Source: Candidatus Equicola faecalis (GTDB taxonomy: Bacteria; Bacteroidota; Bacteroidia; Bacteroidales; Bacteroidaceae). From it: a DNA stretch of 64,000 nt. The notes under the pieces were generated by a model. It made no database searches, was not told the origin of the DNA, and saw nothing but the letters and a program-made list of their open reading frames with translations. The translations under genes and the position numbers were made by a program. Below are positions 3,915 through 32,300 of the stretch, one piece after another. The DNA is taken from the NCBI GenBank assembly GCA_018065185.1, contig JAGHTU010000004.1, positions 60,042 to 124,041 on the forward strand. The letters are read 5' to 3'. The stretch's first letter is position 1. Each line of letters opens with the position of its first letter.

Positions 3915-4243
3915 CGGATTCCCATCAAGGGAAATTTGGATACCCATCGAAGGGATTCCGTATAACCATCGAAGGGGTCTCGTATAACCATCGAAGGGAT
4001 GCCATAGAGGGCATCAGGAGACCCTCTCGACAGCATCAGAACACCCCCAAGAAAGCACCGAGGAATCCCTTCGATTGGAACAGATATTCCGCGACTTCGG
4101 AGGCTGAAAACCAAGCGTGCGTTTGACCTCTCACAAACGATGGGAAGAGGAGGCACAAACGAGCGTTTGTCGAAGCCCAAACGAGCGTTTGTCGAAGCCC
4201 AATCGAGCGTTTGTCGAAAAGCAATCGTGCGTTTGTCGAAAAA
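3915..4243 (+). repeat. Dispersed non-coding element family A, copy 1, with two 4 x 22-bp arrays
   Basis: Arrays at 3921-4008 (CCATCGAAGGG core) and 4156-4243 (CAAACGAGCGTTTGTCGAAGCC). A closely similar inverted copy lies at 53205-53532. Confidence 0.9.
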
Positions 4244-4497
4244 CATACATCCATTTGTCGTTTTTAGATGCTTTAGGCACACGAAAGTAGTATCGGATTT
4301 GAGGTGTTTTACCAACATTTAGGTGGGTTCCATAAATTATATTGAGATGATTTTAGATTTATTTTTGAACAGATTTCATTAATTGACGAAAGCCTATAAT
4401 AGGATACTAAAAGGTACCAACGAATCAAAATTCATGAGAAAAACACGAAAGTAATTGAATATAAATCACTAATTTTGTAGCGTTATTTATCCATGAC

Positions 4498-4728
4498 ATG
4501 GAAGATATTAATCGAATAAAATTGGTTTTAGTAGAGAAGAAACGCACAGCAAAGTGGTTGTCTGAGGAAATGGGTGTCAATCCCTCGACTGTGAGTAAGT
4601 GGTGCACCAACTCGTCTCAACCAGACCTTGGTAGCTTGCTTAAGATTGCGGACCTTCTTAAGGTTGACATCAAAGAGCTACTCGTAAGAGAATACAAACA
4701 TTTTCTCCTATCTCAAGAGTCAAAGTAA
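4498..4728 (+). CDS. XRE-family HTH transcriptional regulator, possible R-M controller
   Basis: NRIKLVLVEKKRTAKWLSEEMGVNPSTVSKWCTNSSQP. A TAATTTTG -7 element sits at about 4470. Confidence 0.9.
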   Translation: MEDINRIKLVLVEKKRTAKWLSEEMGVNPSTVSKWCTNSSQPDLGSLLKIADLLKVDIKELLVREYKHFLLSQESK

Positions 4729-4868
4729 AAGGTTATGGATTATACGAGTGGATTACATATCAAGTCGGTGAAGGATGTTGTAACATATAATATCACTTTG
4801 CATTCGTACGTAAGTAGGAGTTGATTTGGTTCATCGAATAGTGAAAATGAAAACAAAACCACAAATCA

Positions 4869-4994
4869 ATGATGCAACAAGAGAACATCCCAATAAAAGT
4901 AGGATTGCTTGAGCTCCTCTATGGCAGTCAGGGAACACAGTTTGTGATTCCTGCCTATCAGCGTAATTATACTTGGGTGGCGATAAATAAATAA
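4869..4994 (+). pseudogene. N-terminal remnant of a DUF262 (GmrS/ParB-like) gene
   Basis: Hand translation gives MMQQENIPIKVGLLELLYGSQGTQFVIPAYQRNYTWVAINK*. FVIPxYQRxYxW is the DUF262 N-terminal motif. It stops 2 nt before the methylase ATG. Confidence 0.8.
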
Positions 4995-4996
4995 CT

Positions 4997-6205
4997 ATGG
5001 CTAAGAAAAAATATAAAATAGCATCTCTGTTTTCAGGTTGTGGAGGCCTTGATTTAGGCTTTTCTGGCGGCTTTAGTTTTCTTGGAAATGATTACAAACG
5101 ACTAAACACAACAATTGTTTTTGCAAATGATTTTGATTCAGACGCATGTAAATGCTATAATGCGAATCAACTATTGGTTAATGATGGAGAGACCTGTTTA
5201 TTAGAGGACATTCGGGATATTGATGCCAATAGCATTCCTGATTTCGATATATTGCTTGCAGGCTTTCCATGTCAGCCGTTTTCAAATGCTGGAAACAGAA
5301 AAGGTGTTAATGATGACAATGGTAGAGGAACTTTGTTTGAAGAATGTGAAAGGATAATACGAGCGAAAATAAAATCCAATAAACGCCCCCAAGCATTCTT
5401 ATTTGAAAATGTTAGAGGAATTCTTTCTTCAAAAATGCCAGATGGAGAAACCTCTGTTCCACAAGAAATTCAGAAAAGGATGGAATCTTTAGGGTACGGC
5501 GTTAGTATGAAACTTGTCTGCTCAAGTGATTACGGTGTTCCTCAACAAAGATATAGAGTGCTAATTATTGGCATTGATAAGCAATTGGGGAAGAGTCCTT
5601 TCGATTTTAATTCTTTAATGGATGTGGTTAAACAATCACATATTCCATCTAAATTGATGGGAAATGATGAAAAATTACTGTTAGGCTACGTGTTAAAAGG
5701 GGTTCATGAACACGAGGATGATGTCGTGTGGGATTATAGTGCCACAACGCAAAAAACAGTTGAACTAATTGGATGCTGTCAACATGGACAGAAAGCAATG
5801 GATTTTTTTTATGATGGCTATTCAAAACAAGATTTACCAGCTGTCGTTTTTGAAGGTCGTTCATGGAAAAATATTCCATACGAAAAGCTCTCTCCGCGTT
5901 TTAAAAAGATAGCGGATGACCCGAAAAAATATCATGCACCAAAGTTTTTTAGACGGTTTGCTTTCGGTGAAATCAATGGCACTATTACAGCTTCTGCTCA
6001 ACCAGAAAATTGTGGTATTACTCACCCTGTTGAAAATAGACGTTATTCTGTCCGTGAGATTGCAAGAATACAATCGTTTCCAGATGAATTTAGGTTTAAC
6101 GCAATCCCGTTGCAGTCACAGTATAAAGTTATTGGCAATGCTGTCCCTCCCGTAATGGCATGGGTTGTTGCAACAGCGTTGTTGAATCATTTACAAGATA
6201 AATAA
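4997..6205 (+). CDS. DNA (cytosine-5)-methyltransferase
   Basis: Motif I SLFSGCGG, IV GFPCQPFS, VI FENVRG, VIII PQQRYRV, IX-X REIARIQSFP and IGNAVPP. Confidence 0.95.
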   Translation: MAKKKYKIASLFSGCGGLDLGFSGGFSFLGNDYKRLNTTIVFANDFDSDACKCYNANQLLVNDGETCLLEDIRDIDANSIPDFDILLAGFPCQPFSNAGNRKGVNDDNGRGTLFEECERIIRAKIKSNKRPQAFLFENVRGILSSKMPDGETSVPQEIQKRMESLGYGVSMKLVCSSDYGVPQQRYRVLIIGIDKQLGKSPFDFNSLMDVVKQSHIPSKLMGNDEKLLLGYVLKGVHEHEDDVVWDYSATTQKTVELIGCCQHGQKAMDFFYDGYSKQDLPAVVFEGRSWKNIPYEKLSPRFKKIADDPKKYHAPKFFRRFAFGEINGTITASAQPENCGITHPVENRRYSVREIARIQSFPDEFRFNAIPLQSQYKVIGNAVPPVMAWVVATALLNHLQDK

Positions 6206-6213
6206 GGATTATT

Positions 6214-8043
6214 ATGGCATATTTGGCAAAATCAACTGTATTAAAAGCTTATCAATTACTCTCTAATATTGATACTGATAAACGTCAAGGACTTACTCAA
6301 AAGGTCAGTGCATTAAAATATGCATCTGCGTTAGACAGATACTATCTGTTTCACAATCAAAATTGCAATTTAAAACAATCGGTAAATAAAGATTTGTTTG
6401 CATCTTATGTCGGTGAAATCGTAAAAATCAATAACGAACAATGCACAAAAGATTTCTTTTTAGGTGTTTCGGCAAATGGTCGGGATTTTGATTGCGGTAG
6501 CAATTTCTTTTCACAGTCTTCGGTAAAAGATTCGAGAACAAATCCTTACGAAACTTTTTTGTATCCCAAACGATCAGGTTGGCAACCGGTAATGGATGTT
6601 AAGGATCAAGAGCTTATATTTCGTTCTGATTATCTACCTGATGTTTTCTCATTTTATTTGGGAACCTCTGAATTGAGATTGGCTTTTATAATTTGGCTTT
6701 TGCGTTTTACTGAAATTGGGGAAGAAAATTTGGATGGATTAAGATTATCATTAATTAATACCTTTTCAAATATTTTTTGTAATGCTCTTTATATAGATGC
6801 TGTAAACCATGTTGATACCTCTTATATCGAATTTGACAATGAAATGTGTCAGTTGAGCCAAGAAGATATTCTTTCTTTATTTAATTCAAGTAAAAAACAC
6901 TCATGTGAAAGCCCGTTATCAGCGAATATTCCTTTCCAGCAAATCTTCTACGGTGCTCCAGGCACAGGAAAGTCTCATGCCATCAATGAATTGACAGAGG
7001 GCGAAAGCGTGATTCGTACGACTTTCCATCCTGATAGTGATTATTCAACCTTTGTTGGTGCATATAAGCCAACAATGGGATTGTTGCCTATCTGTGATGA
7101 ATTGGGGCAGCCGATGAAGATTGGCAGCACAGTCCTTCATAAGGAGCAGATTATCTACGAGTTTGTTGACCAGGCTTTCTTGCAAGCATACGTACAAGCA
7201 TGGAAATACTATGCAGAGAATAGCGATGATGCAAAGAAACAGTATCTTGTGATTGAAGAAATTAACCGTGGCAACTGTGCACAGATATTCGGCGACCTCT
7301 TCCAGTTGCTTGACCGTAACGACTATGGTTTCTCTGTATATCCTATCAATGCTGATAAGGATATGAAGAAGCAATTGGAAAAGGCATTCAAGAAGGATGG
7401 CAAGACTATCACCATCGAAGGAGCTGACAAAATAAATGCTCTTTATAAGGGTAAAGATGTGGTGAGCCAAGTACTCTCTGGTGACATTCTTTTATTGCCT
7501 GACAACCTCTACATCTGGGCAACAATGAATACCAGTGACCAAAGCCTGTTCCCTATTGATTCCGCCTTCAAACGCAGATGGGAATGGCAGTATATGCCTA
7601 TTGACAAGGGCTACGATGCCAGCGGTCAGGAAATCAAGTGGGCGATTGAAGGCGCCACCAAAAAGTTTGATTGGTGGTCTTTCCTCGAAAAGATAAATGC
7701 CCAGATTGGTGAAGCTACCCAATCGGAGGATAAGAAACTGGGATTCTTCTTCTGCAAGGCTTCTGATGGTGTTATCTCTGCCGAGAAGTTTGTAGGAAAG
7801 GTTATCTTCTATCTCTGGAATGACGTATTCAAGAACAACGGTTTTGATGGTCCTATCTTCAAGGATGTTGATGGAACGGAATTGTCATTCTCAAAATTCT
7901 ACAAATCAGACTCTAAAGGTAATGCCATCGTACAGAAGGATAAGGTAGAGTTGTTCTTAACGAATCTTGAGGTAGAATCTTCAGAAAAAAGTGATAAGAT
8001 AGACCGAGAAGCAGAGATTTCTACAACGATAATAGAACAATGA
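6214..8043 (+). CDS. McrB/LlaJI.R1-like AAA+ NTPase restriction subunit with an unrecognised N-terminal domain
   Basis: Walker A GAPGTGKS, TFHPDSDYSTFVG, Walker B IEEINRGN, McrB signature ATMNTSD and DSAFKRRW. Confidence 0.9.
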   Translation: MAYLAKSTVLKAYQLLSNIDTDKRQGLTQKVSALKYASALDRYYLFHNQNCNLKQSVNKDLFASYVGEIVKINNEQCTKDFFLGVSANGRDFDCGSNFFSQSSVKDSRTNPYETFLYPKRSGWQPVMDVKDQELIFRSDYLPDVFSFYLGTSELRLAFIIWLLRFTEIGEENLDGLRLSLINTFSNIFCNALYIDAVNHVDTSYIEFDNEMCQLSQEDILSLFNSSKKHSCESPLSANIPFQQIFYGAPGTGKSHAINELTEGESVIRTTFHPDSDYSTFVGAYKPTMGLLPICDELGQPMKIGSTVLHKEQIIYEFVDQAFLQAYVQAWKYYAENSDDAKKQYLVIEEINRGNCAQIFGDLFQLLDRNDYGFSVYPINADKDMKKQLEKAFKKDGKTITIEGADKINALYKGKDVVSQVLSGDILLLPDNLYIWATMNTSDQSLFPIDSAFKRRWEWQYMPIDKGYDASGQEIKWAIEGATKKFDWWSFLEKINAQIGEATQSEDKKLGFFFCKASDGVISAEKFVGKVIFYLWNDVFKNNGFDGPIFKDVDGTELSFSKFYKSDSKGNAIVQKDKVELFLTNLEVESSEKSDKIDREAEISTTIIEQ

Positions 8044-22405: not shown

Positions 22406-22657
22406 TTATTGACTATCGCGCATGACTTCTGCATAAAACCGATTTAACTGAAACAGCATTACATCCAAACTATATCGCAGATAGTTTTCTGCATCCCTGA
22501 TTTCTGTTGAAAGGTACATATTCCGTCTCATCGTTACTTCTGCTTCGCGCTCAACTTCATCGTATTTATACAACAGCTCGGTCGGATTTTCCCAATTCAG
22601 TTCGTTTACAATTCTTTTCATCAAACACATTTCATCAGGCTCATCCATTTGGCACAA
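22406..22657 (-). CDS. Small hypothetical protein or gene remnant at the distal end of the island
   Basis: 83-aa ORF 17 nt downstream of the PP2C gene on the same strand. No recognisable motif. Confidence 0.4.
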   Translation of the reverse strand: MCQMDEPDEMCLMKRIVNELNWENPTELLYKYDEVEREAEVTMRRNMYLSTEIRDAENYLRYSLDVMLFQLNRFYAEVMRDSQ

Positions 22658-22674
22658 ATAAACTACTATTGGCT

Positions 22675-23487
22675 TTACATGGAGAAATGCATAATAGCCA
22701 TAGAATAATCATCATTTGCTATAACCTTTTGGTTTAGAAGCTTTGTTATGTGTTTCCTAAAATTATAATCGTGAGATATACTATTAAATAAGGGATTAAC
22801 GACTTGACCAAAATTATCTATTTTTCGATTCAATGCACTCAAAATAAAATTCTCATTTTTAGTCCTTGATTCAATTGCAGTCTTCAATTCATTATCATAA
22901 AGACCTTTGTTTGCGATACAATACGATGACAATATATAATGTGCCAACGCATCGCTACATATAAAAACAACATCATCTGTGCCGATACTGAAAGTACCAC
23001 ATTTAAAGCCTTTAGGGTTCAGCTCATCTTTACTGTTTATTAAATATGGTGCAGAATTAAAATCAACCAGTGCTCCAAAACTATGTTCTAATAGTCCTAT
23101 TTTACGATTATAGTGGAATACAACACTATCCCCATACGCCATCCAATTAACATTCCCATTAACATACCAAGCACATGCGAGTGTAGCAAATGAACCCTCG
23201 TCATAGAACTTATCCAAGAACATGCCGCCTATCTTTTTTGCTTCATCTTCACATTCGAGATAGAAAGGTTCCCAAATAGTTTCAATCCATGAGTCTAATC
23301 GGTCAAATGAAGTAATTGGTGTTGACGGAAGGTTGTTTATCAGATACTCTGACCATCGTTCTGCAAATACGCCACCGCCTCCTGCACCGTCAGAAACCGC
23401 GATAAGATTCCCTTTTGCTATTACAGAATCTTCATTGACAGATGGTTCAAGAATCTTACCTATTGACGATACTTTGAGTTTATACAT
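22675..23487 (-). CDS. PP2C-like protein phosphatase (TerY-P triad type)
   Basis: Metal-binding motifs NEDS, AVSDGAGG, YGDS, ICSDAL and NDDYS. Overlaps the upstream gene by 8 nt. Confidence 0.85.
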   Translation of the reverse strand: MYKLKVSSIGKILEPSVNEDSVIAKGNLIAVSDGAGGGGVFAERWSEYLINNLPSTPITSFDRLDSWIETIWEPFYLECEDEAKKIGGMFLDKFYDEGSFATLACAWYVNGNVNWMAYGDSVVFHYNRKIGLLEHSFGALVDFNSAPYLINSKDELNPKGFKCGTFSIGTDDVVFICSDALAHYILSSYCIANKGLYDNELKTAIESRTKNENFILSALNRKIDNFGQVVNPLFNSISHDYNFRKHITKLLNQKVIANDDYSMAIMHFSM

Positions 23488-24931
23488 TTGCTTTTGAGAT
23501 GTTTGTCGGTGTACCGATATCCATTAATTGAATAAGAGTAGTCATATCTGCATTTACAGCCATTGCAGAATGTCGTTCTTTTCTATTATCATTGAGATAA
23601 GTTGAAATATCATCATTATATCTCAGTGGCAATAGACTTGACATATCAAATAGGATTTTACCATAAGAGTTTTCGCCCAGTTCGGCTTTAGAAATTGGGA
23701 ATGCGACTACGCCATCCCCATTTCCTGGCACAATATGAATATTGAACAGCAAGACATTACCATCATTCGTAAACATGGACTTTATCTCATTTGCCTTCTG
23801 TGTAACAGACTCCACTGTTGCACCATTGAAAATGCCGTCTGTTATGTTAATGATAGTAGGAGGGTAACAATCTTGGTTTTGATGCTTCATCATCCAATCA
23901 TCAAGCAATTCTCTTGCTTTATCTAGAGCTCTATGGACAAAGGTGCTTCTGCCATCACTTCTTGCCTCTACCCACTGAACTTTCTCTACCTCTTTTACAA
24001 CAACTCCTCTACGGGTTCTTTTTTCTTCACGAGTAATTATCTTTTTATATGGATGATCACGTAATTCTTCTGGAGTAACAAAGGATTTGCCTTCAAGCTC
24101 TCCCTGCCAACCGAAATAGGATTCTCTTCCATATCCGATAACAGCTATATCATAATAATTTCTAACCTCTATTGATTTTATACAGCGTAAAACCAGCTCA
24201 TTTATTGTTCTATTAACAATTCTTGCAGCAGCTTCAGCCAACGTCATTTCTTCACCAAACAAACTTGTTTTGTTTCGCATTGAAATAGATTGGTCTATCA
24301 AGAAGATGAACGCAGTTGGATTGCCTCGTGAGATTTGCGCAGTATAGGCTTCCTTGCCAAGTAACTGATTTGGGTTCGATGGAAGAGGAATACCAAAGTT
24401 CGATATATTAGTAATTGCTTCCAACGGAATAAAATTCTTTACGAGAACTTCTGCTTGGAAGTATTTTTGTTCATCTTCAGGCAAATCAAAATGTTTTCTC
24501 ACTTTTAAAGCGGAAAAATGTATATTGTCTAATGCCGACAGGGAACTACCGACCTGAGCGCCATCGCGAGTGGCATTACGATCTGCATATTTCGTATACT
24601 TCCATCCAACAACTGCTGGATCAATTTCCAAAATCACAGGATTTGATATTCTTCCATCCTTCATTGCAACGAACATCATTGGATGCTGTCGGGTAAAACT
24701 TACACGGACATAGTTCTGTAAGCCATCACGTAAATCTAACTGACGTGACAGCTCTCCACCTCCAGGTTTTCTGATAGTTATACCTTTTTCCTTGCAATCC
24801 ATCCATGAGTATAGACCTCCGTTCTTTATAATGGACTCCAGATTATCTCTATCCGTAAAGTGATATAATTTGTTTATACCATTTTTCTTTAGAATGTCTA
24901 AAAAATCTTGATAGTTTTGTTTTGTTGTCAT
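23480..24931 (-). CDS. Fusion of a DarT (DUF4433) DNA ADP-ribosyltransferase domain and a TerY-like vWA domain
   Basis: aa 1-180 has LYHFTDRDNLESIIKNGGLYS, YVRVSF...HPMMF and QAEVLV (catalytic Glu). aa 190-483 has YTAQISRGNPTAFIFLIDQSISM (MIDAS DxSxS), YYDIAVIGY, INITDG and LLFNIHI. Confidence 0.85.
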   Translation of the reverse strand: MTTKQNYQDFLDILKKNGINKLYHFTDRDNLESIIKNGGLYSWMDCKEKGITIRKPGGGELSRQLDLRDGLQNYVRVSFTRQHPMMFVAMKDGRISNPVILEIDPAVVGWKYTKYADRNATRDGAQVGSSLSALDNIHFSALKVRKHFDLPEDEQKYFQAEVLVKNFIPLEAITNISNFGIPLPSNPNQLLGKEAYTAQISRGNPTAFIFLIDQSISMRNKTSLFGEEMTLAEAAARIVNRTINELVLRCIKSIEVRNYYDIAVIGYGRESYFGWQGELEGKSFVTPEELRDHPYKKIITREEKRTRRGVVVKEVEKVQWVEARSDGRSTFVHRALDKARELLDDWMMKHQNQDCYPPTIINITDGIFNGATVESVTQKANEIKSMFTNDGNVLLFNIHIVPGNGDGVVAFPISKAELGENSYGKILFDMSSLLPLRYNDDISTYLNDNRKERHSAMAVNADMTTLIQLMDIGTPTNISKANV

Positions 24932-24934
24932 ATG

Positions 24935-25543
24935 TTAGTCATTAAATAATGTCAATTGTATGTTATCCGAAGACGTATTCTCATCTTTTTTGCTACTAAA
25001 GGGGTATATCCCTTCAACATACGCTTTTATAAGAAAAGCATGAGAAAGTGGTTTTGAAGGATCATCCACATCACAATTTGTTGCATAGTCAAGTAGTACG
25101 ATTGTCTTCATCTTACTCAATTCACGTAAACGTTCAATAATGTTGTGAACCTTATTTTCAAGTACCCATTTGTATGCAGGAAGATAGATCTGGTGTCTTG
25201 CTTCTATGTAACCAAGCAGTTCACTTCCATTTACCCCTTTCCTATGTCCCAGAGGCTTTCCGTATTTTCGTACAGTTCTTTTAAGACCTGCCATTGTTGT
25301 ATTTGTGAATAGCGATGTGTCAACATCACAAGTTTCAAATACCTTTAACCCTTGCCATATGGCTTCAACACAGGATGCCGTAACACCTTCAGAAAAAGGC
25401 ACTGGAATATTTCCATGAGGATAAAATGGACTAAGTTTCACAATTGTATCCTTTGCTTGACTCGTTACATCTGCAATTATGACATTTGGATATTTCTTTA
25501 AGATATTCTCAGGCTTCTTTCTATGTGATTCTATTATTATCAT
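24935..25543 (-). CDS. DUF6939-like protein, NADAR/YbiA-like putative ADP-ribosylhydrolase
   Basis: LSPFYPHGNIPVP and SCVEAIWQGLKVFE resemble the NADAR LSNFY and SVEHxxQAxKF motifs. Ends 3 nt before the DarT-vWA gene. Confidence 0.65.
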   Translation of the reverse strand: MIIIESHRKKPENILKKYPNVIIADVTSQAKDTIVKLSPFYPHGNIPVPFSEGVTASCVEAIWQGLKVFETCDVDTSLFTNTTMAGLKRTVRKYGKPLGHRKGVNGSELLGYIEARHQIYLPAYKWVLENKVHNIIERLRELSKMKTIVLLDYATNCDVDDPSKPLSHAFLIKAYVEGIYPFSSKKDENTSSDNIQLTLFND

Positions 25544-25745
25544 AAATAGTCCTCTCGAATAAATGGATTATAAAAAATAAAAAGATACTTTCATCACGCA
25601 TTTTAAAGACGACATCAAAATTACCATTGCTCATTATTGGATTACTTTCATAGTCAAGAATAGGGCATAAATGAGTGAGTGTAGCAAAATTGTTTTCTGC
25701 ATGCAAAATTGAGTCAATATATTCTAATATAAGTGAATAATTCAT
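25521..25745 (-). pseudogene. Truncated paralogue of the kinase N-terminus
   Basis: MNYSLILEYIDSILHAENNFATLTHLCPILDYESNPIMSNGNFDVVFKM aligns without gaps to the kinase's MKYPIISDYIDSIMSAEENFATLINLRPVLDNEGHPIMSSGNFAVVFKM, then similarity is lost. Confidence 0.85.
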
Positions 25746-25748
25746 ATA

Positions 25749-26411
25749 CTATTCATTAATATCTTTAGTCATTCTTGCTATTTCGTTTACTCCTTCCAAG
25801 AATCTGTAAATAAACAACATCGATGAACGCAAAGTCTCTATACTAATACTAGCAGAAAAAAGTTTCCCTTTGCTTTTACCTAATTGTCGATTTACAAGAT
25901 GACTGTAGCGAAAAGCAGTAGAATCCGGGTCATATTTTTCAAATTCAAGGATCAACTTTCGTATTTTCTTTGTTATGTTATCTGCTTGCATATAGGGGGT
26001 AAGCATTTCCCATAGACTTTCTAAACCATGTTTCTTCAAGTCGTCAATGTTCACGCCTGTTTTGAATAATAATATAGATTCCTTCATTATATTCTCCATG
26101 TAGATACGGAAACAATAAAGCGCAGGAAAAATATACGAATCCTTTATCAGATTGTTCTTGCAATATTTGCAAACGCCCAATAGGTTAATAGCAACGCTGG
26201 CATAACCAATAGAGAATTTTAAAGAATCCAATTCTCCATTGTTGATGATGCTATCAGACGAAAATGCTGAAGACTGAAACATAAAATCTGGAATATTATC
26301 CATTTTTAATGCATCAATATCTTCACAAGAAATATGAAGCACATCTTTTATGATGTCACTCCTTAACCTTTTCTTGTACCTCTTCAAAAAATGTTTTTTG
26401 TATTTATTCAT
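25749..26411 (-). CDS. Hypothetical protein with a HEPN-like helical pattern
   Basis: FPALYCFRIYMENIMK, KHGLESLW and DPDSTAFRY follow the ExxxK / HxLxxL / RY pattern of HEPN-fold proteins. Confidence 0.5.
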   Translation of the reverse strand: MNKYKKHFLKRYKKRLRSDIIKDVLHISCEDIDALKMDNIPDFMFQSSAFSSDSIINNGELDSLKFSIGYASVAINLLGVCKYCKNNLIKDSYIFPALYCFRIYMENIMKESILLFKTGVNIDDLKKHGLESLWEMLTPYMQADNITKKIRKLILEFEKYDPDSTAFRYSHLVNRQLGKSKGKLFSASISIETLRSSMLFIYRFLEGVNEIARMTKDINE

Positions 26412-26417
26412 TTTGCT

Positions 26418-28331
26418 TTATTCTTCGTGATAATCAAGTTTGTAGTATGATTGATACTTTCCTTTCTTTTTATACTCAATCACATTAATCATGGCTGGTG
26501 TTATTTTTCCGCCTTTTATGATTGAGGAGTGAGTAATCGCAAATGAGACATTTTCAGAAATAGTCTTGCATGAGATATGAAAGAACCTGTTCTCATCTTC
26601 TGTCTTTACTTTAATATCACCAATACTATTGATTTCGTCAATACATAATTTTCGCTCACTGAATATTACATATTCTTCTTCTCTTTCATCAAAGGTATCA
26701 ATCACCTCAAACGATCTGGAGTGTGAATTTTCCCTATTTTGTATATCATTCACCTTGTCTGAAAAATGTTTGGCTAAGAATATATTGCGAGCCTTACTTC
26801 TTCTATATAAATTAGCAAGCCACCAACATGCTTCTTTACTGTTGGTTGACGCTTTTGTGAACCAGAATATTGCTTTATTTAAGTCTTGTCGTTGTCCCAA
26901 TTTATGCAAAAGTCCATTTTCACCAAACACTCCATGGTCATACCAATGTCCCAAGATGCATTGAGCATCGGAGTTGTTCATATTGGCAGCTTTCGTAAAA
27001 AGTCTTAGAGCTTCATTTCCATCTCTTGGAACGCCCCTACCTTCATTGTAACATTGAGCTAACATTACAATTGGGATTGAGTCTTCTTTTTGTGCAAGGC
27101 ATTCTTTGAGCAATTGTACTCCTCTATTATAATCTTGTTTAAAAGGGTACCATGCTCTAATCAATTGAACAGCAAGATACAATTTGGCATCATAATAACC
27201 GCATTTAACAGCTTCTTCTAGGCACTTAACCTGAGTGTTATAATGTTTATTATGAAGATGATGCATCATATAGATGGCGAAATAGTTTTCTCCGACATCC
27301 ATGCCTTTTTTGATTCTATCATCACATAGTTTGATATATTCCTCATACTTATTCTCTTTTTTGTACTTTATGGCTTGTTTAATGATGCTATCGAAATGGT
27401 GCGTTGAATTGACATAAGTATTTGGGGCGGATATTTTCAATCTATTAAAGCTGTACTCTGACAAGCGTTTTCCTGAATAAACTTCCAAAAACAAACTAAC
27501 CAAAGTACATATCTGACTATCTGACAACATCTTGGAAACGATACGGAATGCGCCACTCTCTCCGAGATCTAAATAGTCTTTTTGTGCAAACAGCAATCGT
27601 TCTCCACCTGTAAAATCGTGGTACAAAGAAGGTGAATTAATAATGGCTTTCAATGATAACAGAATTGTACAAATAGAAAAATCATCTAAATGTTCATCAA
27701 ATTCGGTTGTTGTTCTATAAGGATGCTGATAATCAGGTGAACCTATTTCTTTAGCCTCTTGACCTTTCATTTCCGGAACATACATTCCGTCATAATCAAC
27801 CAACACTAGTTCTCCATTGTCAGTAACAAGAATGTTATCAGGTTTTAGATCTCCATGTGCAATAGGCGAAGAAATTAACCATTTTGATAATTGATAGAAA
27901 CGGAAAAACAAAGTGTTCAATTCTGCATTGTTATCAATGTTCTTTGCGATATATCTATCCAAAGTTAATCCATCCACCCAATCCATAACAAGCACAGGGT
28001 AGTCTGTCTCTAAACTTTGTTTAGTATTGACAAATAATTCATATTCGTAATAATGGACATTCAATAGATATGGTGACTTTAGCCAGTCTAACTGACGTGA
28101 AATCATACTATAAGACTCGCTTCTTGTTTGTTGGTCTTTTGTGAAGCATTTTACGGCATATTCCTTTCTGCTTTCTACATCTATCATTTTGAACACAACT
28201 GCGAAATTGCCACTACTCATTATTGGATGTCCCTCGTTGTCAAGGACAGGACGAAGGTTTATTAGTGTAGCAAAATTTTCCTCTGCTGACATTATAGAAT
28301 CAATATAATCAGAGATTATAGGATATTTCAT
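26418..28331 (-). CDS. Ser/Thr protein kinase with Sel1-like repeats and a small beta-rich C-terminal domain
   Basis: GNFAVVFK, YAVKCF, MDWVDG, HGDLKPDNIL and LVDYDG. Sel1 repeats include LAQCYNEGRGVPRDGNEALRLFTKAANMNNSDAQCILGHWY. Confidence 0.9.
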   Translation of the reverse strand: MKYPIISDYIDSIMSAEENFATLINLRPVLDNEGHPIMSSGNFAVVFKMIDVESRKEYAVKCFTKDQQTRSESYSMISRQLDWLKSPYLLNVHYYEYELFVNTKQSLETDYPVLVMDWVDGLTLDRYIAKNIDNNAELNTLFFRFYQLSKWLISSPIAHGDLKPDNILVTDNGELVLVDYDGMYVPEMKGQEAKEIGSPDYQHPYRTTTEFDEHLDDFSICTILLSLKAIINSPSLYHDFTGGERLLFAQKDYLDLGESGAFRIVSKMLSDSQICTLVSLFLEVYSGKRLSEYSFNRLKISAPNTYVNSTHHFDSIIKQAIKYKKENKYEEYIKLCDDRIKKGMDVGENYFAIYMMHHLHNKHYNTQVKCLEEAVKCGYYDAKLYLAVQLIRAWYPFKQDYNRGVQLLKECLAQKEDSIPIVMLAQCYNEGRGVPRDGNEALRLFTKAANMNNSDAQCILGHWYDHGVFGENGLLHKLGQRQDLNKAIFWFTKASTNSKEACWWLANLYRRSKARNIFLAKHFSDKVNDIQNRENSHSRSFEVIDTFDEREEEYVIFSERKLCIDEINSIGDIKVKTEDENRFFHISCKTISENVSFAITHSSIIKGGKITPAMINVIEYKKKGKYQSYYKLDYHEE

Positions 28332-28343
28332 AAGACGTTATTT

Positions 28344-28622
28344 TTAGAATGGTAAATCATCTGAAGTGTCATCACTATCATTCTTAAATGTATAACCCCA
28401 CGTATGAAGTTTTTTGATTATTTGAGCAAGCCTATTGACTTCATCTATTGACTGAGTTCTTGCATCAATTTTCTTTAAGTTCAGCGCATACTTGAATGTA
28501 CTATTTCCAATACTTGTCACAGAATTTGGAATAATTATTTCTCCAGATGCTATTGTATCGCAACGCATCAAGACCTTTTCTGTCTCATCAAACGTTAAAA
28601 ATTCACGATTATCCATGCTCAT
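28344..28622 (-). CDS. Short protein with one BspA-type LRR unit and an acidic DDLPF tail, possibly internally deleted
   Basis: IIIPNSVTSIGNSTF and C-terminus SDDTSDDLPF. The start is set at ATG 28622 because the promoter lies inside the longer ORF call. Confidence 0.6.
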   Translation of the reverse strand: MSMDNREFLTFDETEKVLMRCDTIASGEIIIPNSVTSIGNSTFKYALNLKKIDARTQSIDEVNRLAQIIKKLHTWGYTFKNDSDDTSDDLPF

Positions 28623-28655
28623 ATTGTTTTCTTTCTGTAATGGTGCTTCCTTTTG

Positions 28656-28663
28656 CAAATTTA
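28656..28663 (-). promoter_or_regulatory. -7 element for the kinase/DarT-vWA operon
   Basis: Minus-strand TAAATTTG(CA) matches TAnnTTTG, 34 nt before ATG 28622. Confidence 0.6.
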
Positions 28664-28809
28664 GTGCATAGCAAGAATAAAACAATAATAATTTTTATCA
28701 ATTATCACCTGTTATTTTCTAGGCTTATTATTTTCTTTTTCCCATCATCTATGATGAGACGCTTATCGGTGTGGAATGTGGGAAGATCACAGAGTAGGCT
28801 CTGTCCAAG

Positions 28810-29322: not shown

Positions 29323-29385
29323 CAATTGTCAATTATCAATTATCAATTGTCAATTATCAATTATCAATTGTCAATTATCAATTGT
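29323..29385. repeat. Heptamer tandem repeat (CAATTRT)9 overlapping the mfd 3' end
   Basis: Nine units of CAATTGT or CAATTAT counted directly. Confidence 0.95.
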
Positions 29386-32300
29386 CTAAGCACCTCGATG
29401 GCTTGGCTGACGGAAGCAACAGAGGAAATGGAGATGATGCGTTTTCCTTTGACTTCCTTTATCTGGCAGCGGCGCGGATTAGTGGCGATGAACTGCAACA
29501 AGGCATCGAAAGCCTGACTCTGATAGTATGGGCTGTCGTTGTTCGTTACCAACCCGAGATTCATCCGTCCCTGCTTCAGCATGATGCGCTCAATGCCCAG
29601 TCTTACTCCTCGCTGGCGGAGAAGCACCACCCTCATGAGGTCTTCGCCCACAGAAGGCACCTCGCCAAAGCGGTCGATGAGCCTTGCACGGAAACGCTCC
29701 ACCTCATCGGCAGACTTCAAGGAGTCAAGTTCACGATAGAGCATCATCCTCTCGCCCGAAGAAGGCACATAACTCTCAGGGAAATACATCTCAAGGTCGG
29801 TCTCGAGCGAACAGTCGGAGACAAACGTCATGGAGTTGTCCGTAGCGGCTTCGCCCTCTGCCACAGCCATCACATCGCTCTCCTCATTGCGTATCTCTGC
29901 CACAGCCTCGGAGAGAATCTTCTGGTAAGTCTCATATCCCAAATCGGCGATGAAACCGCTCTGCTCCGAGCCGAGCAGATTGCCTGCCCCACGGATGTCG
30001 AGGTCTTGCATGGCAAGATGAATGCCACTGCCAAGGTCGGAGAAATTCTCGATGGCTTCCAAGCGTCGCCGTGCATCGAGAGGCAACGCGCTCAGTGGCG
30101 GAGCCAAGAGATAACAGAACGCCTTGCGATTGCCACGCCCCACACGTCCGCGCATCTGGTGCAGGTCGGAAAGCCCAAAGTGTTGCGCATTGTTGATGAT
30201 GATGGTGTTTGCGTTTGGAATGTCTATGCCGTTCTCAACGATAGTGGTGGAAAGCAACACATCATAATCGTAATTGACAAAGCCCATGATGATGTTCTCC
30301 AGTTCCTCAGGCTTCATCTGCCCATGCCCGATGGCGATGCGACACTCTGGCAGACGTCTTTTCACCGTATTATACAAGTCGTCAAGAGAATTGATGCGGT
30401 TGCTCACAAAGAACACCTGCCCGTTTCTGTCCATCTCAAAACGTATAGCGTCGGCTATAAGGTCGGCATCAAACGTATGCACCTCAGTCTGTATCGGATA
30501 GCGGTTAGGCGGTGGGGTCTGTATGACGCTCATATCGCGCGCGCCCATCAGAGAGAACTGCAAGGTGCGCGGAATCGGCGTTGCACTCATCGTGATGGTA
30601 TCGACATTAGTCTTTATCTGGCGCAATTTCTCTTTTACAGCGACACCGAACTTCTGTTCCTCATCGATGATGAGCAAACCAAGGTCGTGGAAATGCACCG
30701 TCTTGCTTATCAGTTTATGAGTGCCGATGATGATGTCTATCTTCCCCTGTTGCAGGTCTTGCAGGAGTGCGGTGGTTTTCTTTGCAGAGCGCGCACGCGA
30801 GAGATAATCCACCCTGACGGGGAGGTCACGCAGTCGCTCGGAGAATGTCTTGTAATGCTGGAACGCCAAGACCGTGGTGGGCACGAGCACCGCCACCTGC
30901 TTCCCATCGCACGCCGCCTTGAATGCCGCACGCACCGCCACCTCCGTCTTGCCGAAGCCTACATCGCCACAGATAAGGCGGTCCATCGGTTGAGGACGCT
31001 CCATATCAGCCTTGACATCGTTTGTGGCTTTGAGCTGGTCAGGCGTGTCTTCATAGAGAAAACTTGCTTCCAGTTCGTGTTGCATGAAACAGTCGGAGGA
31101 AAAGGCAAACCCTTTGGCGCGACGTCTTGTGGCGTAAAGGCGTATCAGGTCGCGAGCAATGTCTTTTATCTTCTTCTTTGTACGCGCCTTGAGATTTTCC
31201 CACGCCCCAGTGCCCAATCGGCTCAACTTGACGTTCTCCGCCCCTTCCTTACCCTTATATTTAGAAACCTTGTGCAAGGAGTGGATGGAGACGTAAATGG
31301 TGTCGTTGTTCTGATAGCCGATTTTTATCATCTCCTGAAATCCGTCTCCCTGTGGCAGACGCACAAGGCCTTCGAAGCGACCGATGCCATGGTCAACATG
31401 CACGATGAAATCGCCCACTTCAAACTGTTGCAACTCTTTCAGCGTGAGAGCCACCTTACCGCTACGCACCTTCTCCGAGCGGAGGTTATACTTATGGAAA
31501 CGGTCGAAAATCTGATGATCCGTAAAGAAGCAGGCTTTTAAGTCGCCGTCCACGAACCCCTCATGTAGCGTCCGTTCAACGGGAGTGAAAGTGATGAAGC
31601 GCGACTGTTCTTCAAAAATATCCTTCAACCGCTGGTGTTGCTTACTGCTGTCGGCAAGGATAAAGATGCGGTAGGAACGGTTGATATAGTCCTCAAGCGT
31701 CTCTTTCAGCAGGTCGAAATTCTTATGAAACAGCGGTTGCGCCACAGTGTTGAAACGATACGCACCATCTCCGCCCTGAGACTTCGCTCGGATGTCAATA
31801 CGGCGCATCGATTTGGCACGCCTCTGGAAGTCTTCATCCTCCACGCTGTCGCATATAAAGCGAAAGTCACGAGTGACGAGGAGCGTATCATCGGGCATGA
31901 TGTCAATGATGGACGATGTCTCAAGAGCCTCCTCATCGCCCTCTGCCGAGGCATCAATGTTGCCGACAATCTCTATTGCCTCCAACTCCTGAAGGGAAAG
32001 TTGCGTCTGCACATCAAAAGTGCGGATGGAATCCACATCATCACCGAAGAAATCCACGCGGAACGGATATTCACTGCTGAAGGAGAACACATCGACGATG
32101 CCTCCACGCATGGCATACTGCCCGGGCTCATAGACGTAATCCACCTCCATAAACCCCATCTCGTCAAGCCTTGTTGCGATGGCAGTCATCTTCATCCTCT
32201 CGCCATGACGAACCGTCAGGATATTCTTCAAGAGCGAACCTTCCTTCCTCACCCTCTCGCTCACAGCATCGGGATAGGAGATGATGAACGTTGCAGCGTC

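Follow-up and report, generated by a model that had tools for sequence, protein, structure and literature searches.

A predicted NADAR-fold protein of the DUF6939 family with a clamp-binding-like tail, encoded beside a DarT-vWA gene in Candidatus Equicola faecalis

In the DarTG1 system, the NADAR antitoxin of E. coli C7 needs the residues E88, K95, K115 and D171, according to the available part of the report of Schuller et al. (PMC11543638). All four NADAR types tested by Cihlova et al. hydrolyse guanine-ADP-ribose (G-ADPr); YbiA and the T4 NADAR do so in vitro and do not rescue cells from DarT1 toxicity, and a sigma70-linked NADAR of EPEC rescues them partially. The basis of this difference is left unexplained in the accessible part of that paper (PMC11125620). 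T4 AdfN was suggested to need a stabilising or localising factor (Johannesman et al., PMC11825919), and the localisation of erasers matters for the phage, AdfM going to the phage nucleus (Morgan et al., PMC13309987); both papers were available in part. Transposases are known to bind the sliding clamp through C-terminal motifs (PMC3971601), and pentamer and hexamer classes of clamp motif have been described (bioRxiv 10.64898/2026.05.27.728225), again in the accessible portions of these texts. A clamp-like NADAR tail is not mentioned in the available parts of PMC11543638, PMC11125620 and PMC11825919, nor is a link between DarG and the clamp in those of PMC12170906 and PMC9967889.

The window analysed here is a stretch of 64,000 nucleotides from a contig of Candidatus Equicola faecalis. 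The gene under study (24935..25543, minus strand) encodes a protein of 202 aa that was assigned to the Pfam family DUF6939 (PF22075; residues 6–172, E = 2.9e-78, 261.7 bits against a cut-off of 27). The Pfam match, a fold model and alignments allow us to predict that this protein is a NADAR-fold ADP-ribose glycohydrolase acting as an antitoxin. No matching model was found in NCBIfam or PADLOC. The family is represented by 7363 hits at 90% clustering. An earlier note, made from the sequence alone, had placed a DUF6939-like gene directly before a DarT-vWA gene and had pointed to the motifs LSPFYP and VEAIWQGLKVF and to a polar tail ending in QLTLF. All of these features were confirmed: the stop codon is separated by 3 nt from the ATG of the 483-aa DarT-vWA ORF at position 24931, the two motifs occupy residues 37–42 and 59–69, and QLTLF corresponds to residues 196–200 within the polar C-terminal tail. 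The codons of the clamp-binding-like motif Q196-L-T-L-F200, a designation based on motif statistics, conservation and a complex model, are located at 24944..24958 (minus strand). They are preceded by a variable linker (residues 184–195; 24959..24994, minus strand), which is predicted to be disordered from pLDDT values and the alignment of homologues.

All genes of the surrounding cassette are located on the minus strand. In the order of transcription, these are an ORF of 113 aa with a weak LRR_5 match that resembles the C-terminal portion of a longer L001 ORF, L001 being a related locus (28344..28685); a Ser/Thr kinase of the TerY-P type with Sel1 repeats (637 aa; 26418..28331; Pfam and PADLOC STK_OB, E = 1e-55); a 220-aa accessory ORF without a family match, present in 4 of 81 loci including the window (25749..26411); a decayed remnant of a second kinase gene, 74 codons long and recognised by comparison with L001 (25521..25745); the DUF6939 gene; a gene whose product carries a DarT ADP-ribosyltransferase domain (about residues 1–180) fused to a TerY-like vWA domain (483 aa; 23480..24931); and a PP2C-type phosphatase of 270 aa (22675..23487; PADLOC PP2C, E = 5.1e-11). 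The fusion protein was recognised using profiles (PADLOC TerY, E = 4e-52; DarT, E = 4e-18), a PDB sequence search and Foldseek, and its vWA domain has the MIDAS motif DxSxS at position 213. Judging by these matches, the cassette is a TerY-P triad, namely an operon that combines vWA, PP2C and Ser/Thr kinase genes, in which the vWA protein bears a DarT domain. This embedding of the DUF6939/DarT pair was absent from the earlier note. In L001, the counterpart of the kinase remnant (4146–7004) is intact and encodes 952 aa with two kinase domains, so most of the second kinase gene has been deleted in the window. The whole cassette lies in a low-GC island (22406..28685; 33–40% GC vs 46–54% in the flanks), which is bordered by an acyltransferase gene and a gene that we take to be mfd. 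Just upstream of the mfd-like ORF, at about 29325–29390, short tandem repeats of 7 nt appeared as stacked promoter-like matches; the scan for promoters and terminators gave nothing informative.

A cassette consisting of one or more kinases, DUF6939, DarT-vWA(TerY) and PP2C is conserved in Bacteroidota. Of 81 loci (the window and 80 others, kept as the best among 144 related genome loci; several loci end at contig edges), 75 had DarT, 73 vWA, 69 PP2C and 60 a kinase. Genomes with DUF6939 above the cut-off numbered 3 of 401 at the level of the phylum, 8 of 401 for the order and 3 of 401 for the class, the phylum and order counts including the genome of the window itself; this sporadic distribution would fit a defence cassette. 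A split form, in which DarT and DUF6939 are accompanied by a free vWA protein and a PP2C-like ORF, was found in locus L229 (1–4131), and the DarT-vWA fusion is thus optional. In L022/L026 and L049 (Segatella copri), a second DUF6939 copy is located a few kb downstream, past another kinase gene. SSB-tail-like DDLPF ends were observed on kinase or LRR ORFs of the window (28344–28685) and of L001, L067, L072, L073, L074, L077 and L175. There are 11 distinct ends of this type among the locus ORFs, 6 of them on kinases, against a background of 2 of 1622 genome ORFs, one of which is probably SSB itself. These ends may be a second link to replisome partners or a decoy for them.

To evaluate the fold of the DUF6939 protein, an AlphaFold2 model was built on 96 of 270 homologues. 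Its pLDDT was 93, with values below 50 at residues 187–195. The best Foldseek match was the Geobacter lovleyi NADAR (8BAT; probability 1.00, E = 1.3e-3, which just misses E <= 0.001), followed by E. coli YbiA. In a VIA-align comparison with 48,161 chains, the top three matches were all NADARs, namely 8BAT (Z 9.7; rmsd 4.2 A over 163 aligned residues), 2B3W (Z 7.7; 7.2 A) and 8BAU (Z 7.2; 4.5 A), and the next match had Z 5.5. HHalign against 23 canonical NADARs gave a probability of 94.7 and E = 5.8e-8. The NADAR-like fold suggested by the earlier note is thus supported by the model and the profile comparison. A single-sequence PDB search found nothing meaningful for this protein, and in a PDB profile search 8BAT appeared at E 0.33, ranked under two chance RNF8 matches. 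The Pfam NADAR-DarT1 profile (PF22397) gave matches at E <= 1 to 51 of the 96 members of the family (lowest E 2e-7), the homologue P0153 lying just above its cut-off; the window protein gave no match at E <= 1. In addition, the window protein starts about 30 residues into the canonical NADAR alignment and mostly lacks the N-terminal beta-beta-alpha extension. Because the cut-off is missed and most of this extension is missing, the window protein falls outside PF22397. In the ESM Atlas, DUF6939 clusters were found, one of which contains 17% NADAR-DarT1 members.

Alignment using MAFFT and HHalign showed that E60, K67 and K88 of the DUF6939 protein correspond to E88, K95 and K115 of the C7 NADAR. 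Among the 96 members, E60 is kept in 85, K67 in 94 and K88 in 81. The position of the catalytic aspartate is ambiguous in these comparisons: D152 (92 of 96) closes the last predicted strand, and both alignments instead put D158 (72 of 96) on D171 of C7. In long homologues (16 chosen by hand and that of locus L227), there are fusions to YbiA-NADAR, PARG, NUDIX, SLOG/DprA and DUF4326 domains, which are placed in ADP-ribose processing in the accessible part of PMC9503650.

Among 123 domains of the DarT partner, H24, F25, T26 and N119 are invariant and E161 is found in 121; these residues match H17, F18, T19, N104 and E152 of the C7 DarT1. M86 (117 of 123) and S78 (121 of 123) are also conserved, so that equivalents of the DarT1-type M71/F72 and S63 are present, and N119 is the base-reading Asn of the DarT1 type, not His. 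The best PDB sequence match of DarT-vWA was DarT1 (8BAQ, E 0.0013). Foldseek with the full-length model ranked DarT2 (7OMY, E 9.8e-7) above DarT1 (8BAQ, E 2.0e-5). The guanine-contacting K74/Y75 of C7 align to A89/M90, and the R52 column is variable, without a clear counterpart. Guanine is named here as a best guess for the target base.

The earlier note had proposed that the tail of the DUF6939 protein binds the beta-clamp, and several computational results support its clamp-binding-like character. The pattern QL[SDT]LF, to which T was added since the query carries it, was found within the last 12 residues of only 2 of 1622 genome ORFs, where shuffled sequences predict 0.05, and in 0 of 44205 internal 12-mers. 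The second ORF (386 aa) is presumably an IS4-like transposase. An 807-aa ORF (G000:C66:24062-26485), which looks PglZ-like to us, has a match of the Qxx[SD]LF type near its C-terminus. A sample of 50 homologues, taken from the closest 120, has F200 without exception, while the linker columns 184–195 are unconserved and the linker varies freely in length and sequence. The tail variants include QLSLF, QLDLF and QLELF as well as the hexamer forms QLxLxL and QLxIxF, and so represent both classes of clamp motif. With one clamp pattern, composed after the tails were inspected, matches were found at 93 of 123 distinct DUF6939 ends and at none of the ends of 53 DarT-vWA, 91 PP2C and 171 kinase proteins (background: 26 of 1622 genome ORFs). 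The tail thus fits the Q-phi-x-L-F consensus in a flexible region.

Modelling of DUF6939 residues 172–202 with the DnaN of the same genome (373 aa) gave an ipSAE of 0.61, and the best of three controls reached 0.02. The ipSAE mark used is one that 116 of 157 solved complexes attain, compared with 2 of 215 mismatched pairs. The runs shared at least 83% of contacts, although the fold of the partner itself is uncertain (pLDDT 46–47), and residues 193–200 were placed on DnaN residues 174–179, 243, 248 and 365–372, which we take to be the canonical peptide pocket. QLTLF is thus predicted to dock in the DnaN peptide pocket. Because such peptide-pocket complexes have already been solved, this pass indicates likeness, not binding, and for such a textbook pair it may come from the memory of the model. 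Phosphorylation of T198 was considered as an off-switch for clamp binding and ruled out, as Asp and Glu are common at position 198.

The tail is associated with DarT. Among 176 complete genes with enough flanking sequence, 157 lie within 1.5 kb of a DarT gene, and the clamp-like tail is present in 138 of these 157 vs 1 of 18 DarT-less genes; 17 rows were left out (8 lacking WxGLK, 7 located at contig edges, 1 open and 1 without an end anchor). The single tailed DarT-less gene is a second copy on a contig with a full cassette, and one more tailed paralogue has its DarT farther off. After collapsing at 88% identity, the tail was found in 40 of 48 DarT-adjacent and 1 of 13 DarT-less genes. The independent pairs numbered 4 on a quick tree (sign test p 0.25) and 3 on a careful tree, whose bootstrap was not settled (p 0.5). 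With no pair in the opposite direction and too few pairs for significance, the coupling between tail and DarT in these sequences is suggestive. It includes a tail-less orphan (L062) nested among tailed DarT-linked members, and 19 of the 157 DarT-adjacent genes are tail-less or off-pattern, L039 and L078 being without any tail.

The motif persists in loci whose DarT lacks the vWA domain (L221, L116, L225) and in those with ZorAB-like genes after the pair. The latter arrangement, in which DarT and DUF6939 are followed directly by ZorA/ZorB-like genes, was observed in L221 (5531–9927), L116 (3769–7950) and L208 (4739–8858). PADLOC ZorB was matched at E values of 5e-15, 7e-14 and 1e-17, respectively; ZorA matches were weak in two of the loci and no match was found in L116. 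The DarTs of these loci have long N-terminal extensions. Such loci are candidates, by gene content, for a Zorya-like variant with a DarT effector.

DUF6939 genes were also observed in other contexts. In L222 (5224–12812), L207 and L227, tail-less copies occur in ADP-ribose clean-up islands, whose genes are ARG, YbiA-NADAR, Sir2, KptA, macrodomains (two in L222) and NUDIX, or are fused to YbiA-NADAR. Orphans in L209 and L211 have SMI1/KNR4 and Imm7 immunity genes as neighbours or follow an RHS gene at a distance of two genes, and may provide immunity to ADP-ribosylating interbacterial toxins. Other tail-less members were found on large viral contigs (L117-L126), including two GVMAG giant-virus records; these are candidate anti-DarT counter-defence erasers. 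A search of phages for DUF6939 gave weak matches in jumbo phages only.

The same tail pattern was found in canonical DarT1-NADARs from several phyla. It was present in 11 of 24 proteins, and 19 of 24 had either this pattern or a looser one defined post hoc (backgrounds: 26 and 90 of 1622 genome ORFs, respectively); 5 of 24 did not match even the loose pattern. The 24 distinct proteins were taken from genome samples, viral contigs, 8 of 29 plasmid hits and E. coli C7, with the exclusion of three near-duplicates, one 996-aa fusion and Psychrobacter-like orphans; for one of them (L243), the DarT partner was not detected by the DarT profile used. Their tails include QLSLF, QPSLF, QTSLF, QLDIF and QMSFF, and the C7 antitoxin ends in a degenerate QHTLI, in which Q1 and L4 alone are kept. 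The large Psychrobacter-like clade of PF22397 NADARs (P0271-P0390) has a different, conserved tail that is not clamp-like. At the one such locus examined (L232), no DarT was found within 1.5 kb.

Based on these observations, we consider it fairly probable that the locus encodes a clamp-tethered NADAR-type antitoxin that would keep host forks free of DarT adducts, the kinase/vWA/PP2C triad probably serving as its switch. DUF6939 probably acts as the antitoxin to the DarT-vWA toxin encoded next to it, and its predicted hydrolase domain would strip ADP-ribose from single-stranded DNA and so relieve toxicity. DarT would mark single-stranded DNA, which is most exposed at forks, and the conserved C-terminal QLTLF would likely hold the eraser there through the predicted binding to the DnaN sliding clamp. 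A tether of this kind would raise the local concentration of the eraser at forks, and therefore basal or triggered DarT activity would not stall host replication. The triad could be the on/off switch of the cassette, for which we infer an anti-phage function. The further proposal that host DNA would be spared while phage DNA would stay modified is plausible, if less likely than not, and applies solely to phages that bring a replisome of their own. A wider reading is likewise possible, with the odds somewhat against it: across phyla and two NADAR families, erasers would be tethered to the host clamp, so that ADP-ribose would be removed at host forks and left on phage DNA made by a phage-encoded replisome. 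This would explain why catalytically competent, untethered NADARs fail as antitoxins. The DUF6939 branch would then be a third DarT system that is connected to TerY-P or Zorya-like sensors and may have a base specificity of its own.

The motif and docking evidence is also compatible with the clamp serving as a sensor. In that case, the occupation or inhibition of DnaN by phage proteins, or the shut-off of host replication, would displace the eraser and DarT-driven death or arrest would follow as abortive infection, with no DNA spared. Many proteins compete for the one DnaN pocket and unopposed DarT1 is toxic to the host, as the partly available sources indicate. However, the cassette already includes a candidate sensor-switch, namely kinases with variable LRR/Sel1 regions and PP2C, and the motif is kept where DarT pairs with ZorAB-like genes or stands alone, a retention more in line with constant protection; we consider the sensing role of the clamp unlikely. 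Slightly less weight is given to the assumption that DUF6939 is NADAR-like and has a different ADP-ribose conjugate as its substrate (protein, RNA or a small molecule), or that DarT-vWA is a regulated signalling enzyme and not a toxin. The orphans in clean-up islands such as L222, in immunity arrays and on viral contigs would fit this assumption, as would the ambiguity of both the catalytic Asp and the DarT base. It is opposed by the proximity of DarT to 157 of 176 complete DUF6939 genes, by the near-complete conservation of H24, F25, T26, N119 and E161 in DarT, by the nearest solved structure, which is a DarT1 antitoxin, and by the activity of all four tested NADAR types on G-ADPr in the accessible part of the published work.

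The least probable of the alternatives, in our opinion, is that the hydrophobic tail binds a partner other than DnaN. This could be the toxin, perhaps through its vWA domain, or a protease recognising a C-terminal degron, the antitoxin being destroyed on infection. The tracking of the tail with DarT, the degeneracy of some tails and the binding of DarT2 by the C-terminal region of DarG2, known from a partly available source, would fit this reading. Yet the tails match the Q-phi-x-L-F or hexamer consensus and QLTLF is predicted to dock in the DnaN pocket, and the motif also occurs beside DarTs without a vWA domain (L221, L116, L225 and canonical pairs). Moreover, acidic or several extra residues often follow the motif, unlike degrons of this kind, which are free-terminus signals. 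The tether to the clamp thus continues to be the preferred reading.

This reading gives a large unannotated family, DUF6939, a specific and testable function, and it is accompanied by the description of DarT cassettes linked with TerY-P or ZorAB-like genes. A tail of five residues bears on the open question of why NADARs that are alike in vitro are unequal in cell protection (PMC11125620, in its accessible part), and on how DarT systems might spare host DNA: a C-terminal tag that also ends many DarTG1 antitoxins would explain clean host replication forks. Neither a function of DUF6939 nor a clamp-tethered DarT eraser was found described in the literature searched, a scope that left out most subscription papers and supplements, and in the search for NADAR together with clamp, the sole NADAR paper contained "clamp" as an author name. 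The family name DUF6939 itself occurred in none of the papers searched. DUF6939 members could already be counted as NADARs by de Souza & Aravind 2012 or Anantharaman 2012, or in the supplementary alignments of Schuller et al. What we regard as new is the NADAR family assignment, the DarT cassette architectures and the clamp-tether hypothesis, which reaches the studied DarTG1 system.

A comparison of the locus with DarTG1 (E. coli C7, Geobacter lovleyi; PF22397; PMC11543638, available in part) indicated that in both cases a DarT-family transferase gene adjoins a NADAR-fold gene. The E-x6-K catalytic pair and the equivalent of K115 are in register in DUF6939, equivalents of the DarT1-type N104, M71, F72, S63 and E152 are present in the window DarT, and C-terminal clamp-like tails occur on many canonical antitoxins. 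However, DUF6939 is a separate family with about 21-25% identity, mostly under the PF22397 cut-off, and is without most of the N-terminal extension. In addition, in the window the antitoxin gene is located upstream of the toxin gene, DarT is fused to vWA and K74/Y75 are not kept, and a clamp tether is not described for DarTG1 in the accessible part of PMC11543638. Similarity to the TerY-P triad (Anantharaman 2012, Gao 2020, as cited in the available part of PMC11090510) is expressed in the matches to PADLOC TerY, PP2C and STK_OB and in the DxSxS MIDAS; unlike that triad, the window vWA protein has an N-terminal DarT domain, a NADAR-like gene is inserted, and the cassette kinases, often multiple, end in Sel1/LRR regions.

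With the beta-clamp-binding proteins (Pol IV, MutS, Hda and IS transposases; PMC3971601 and bioRxiv 10.64898/2026.05.27.728225, in their accessible parts), the DUF6939 protein shares a flexible tail that terminates in Q-phi-x-L-F, the occurrence of pentamer and hexamer variants and a predicted position in the same pocket. The carrier of the motif is different, since DUF6939 is a predicted antitoxin or eraser, and no such carrier was found in the literature searched. Finally, the efficiency of the erasers AdfN (PMC11825919) and AdfM (PMC13309987) also seems to depend on location, according to the portions of these papers available. These two proteins protect phage DNA, unlike the host-side role proposed here, and the viral DUF6939 orphans examined are without the tail motif, while a prophage-like DUF6939 copy located beside DarT (L116) carries it.
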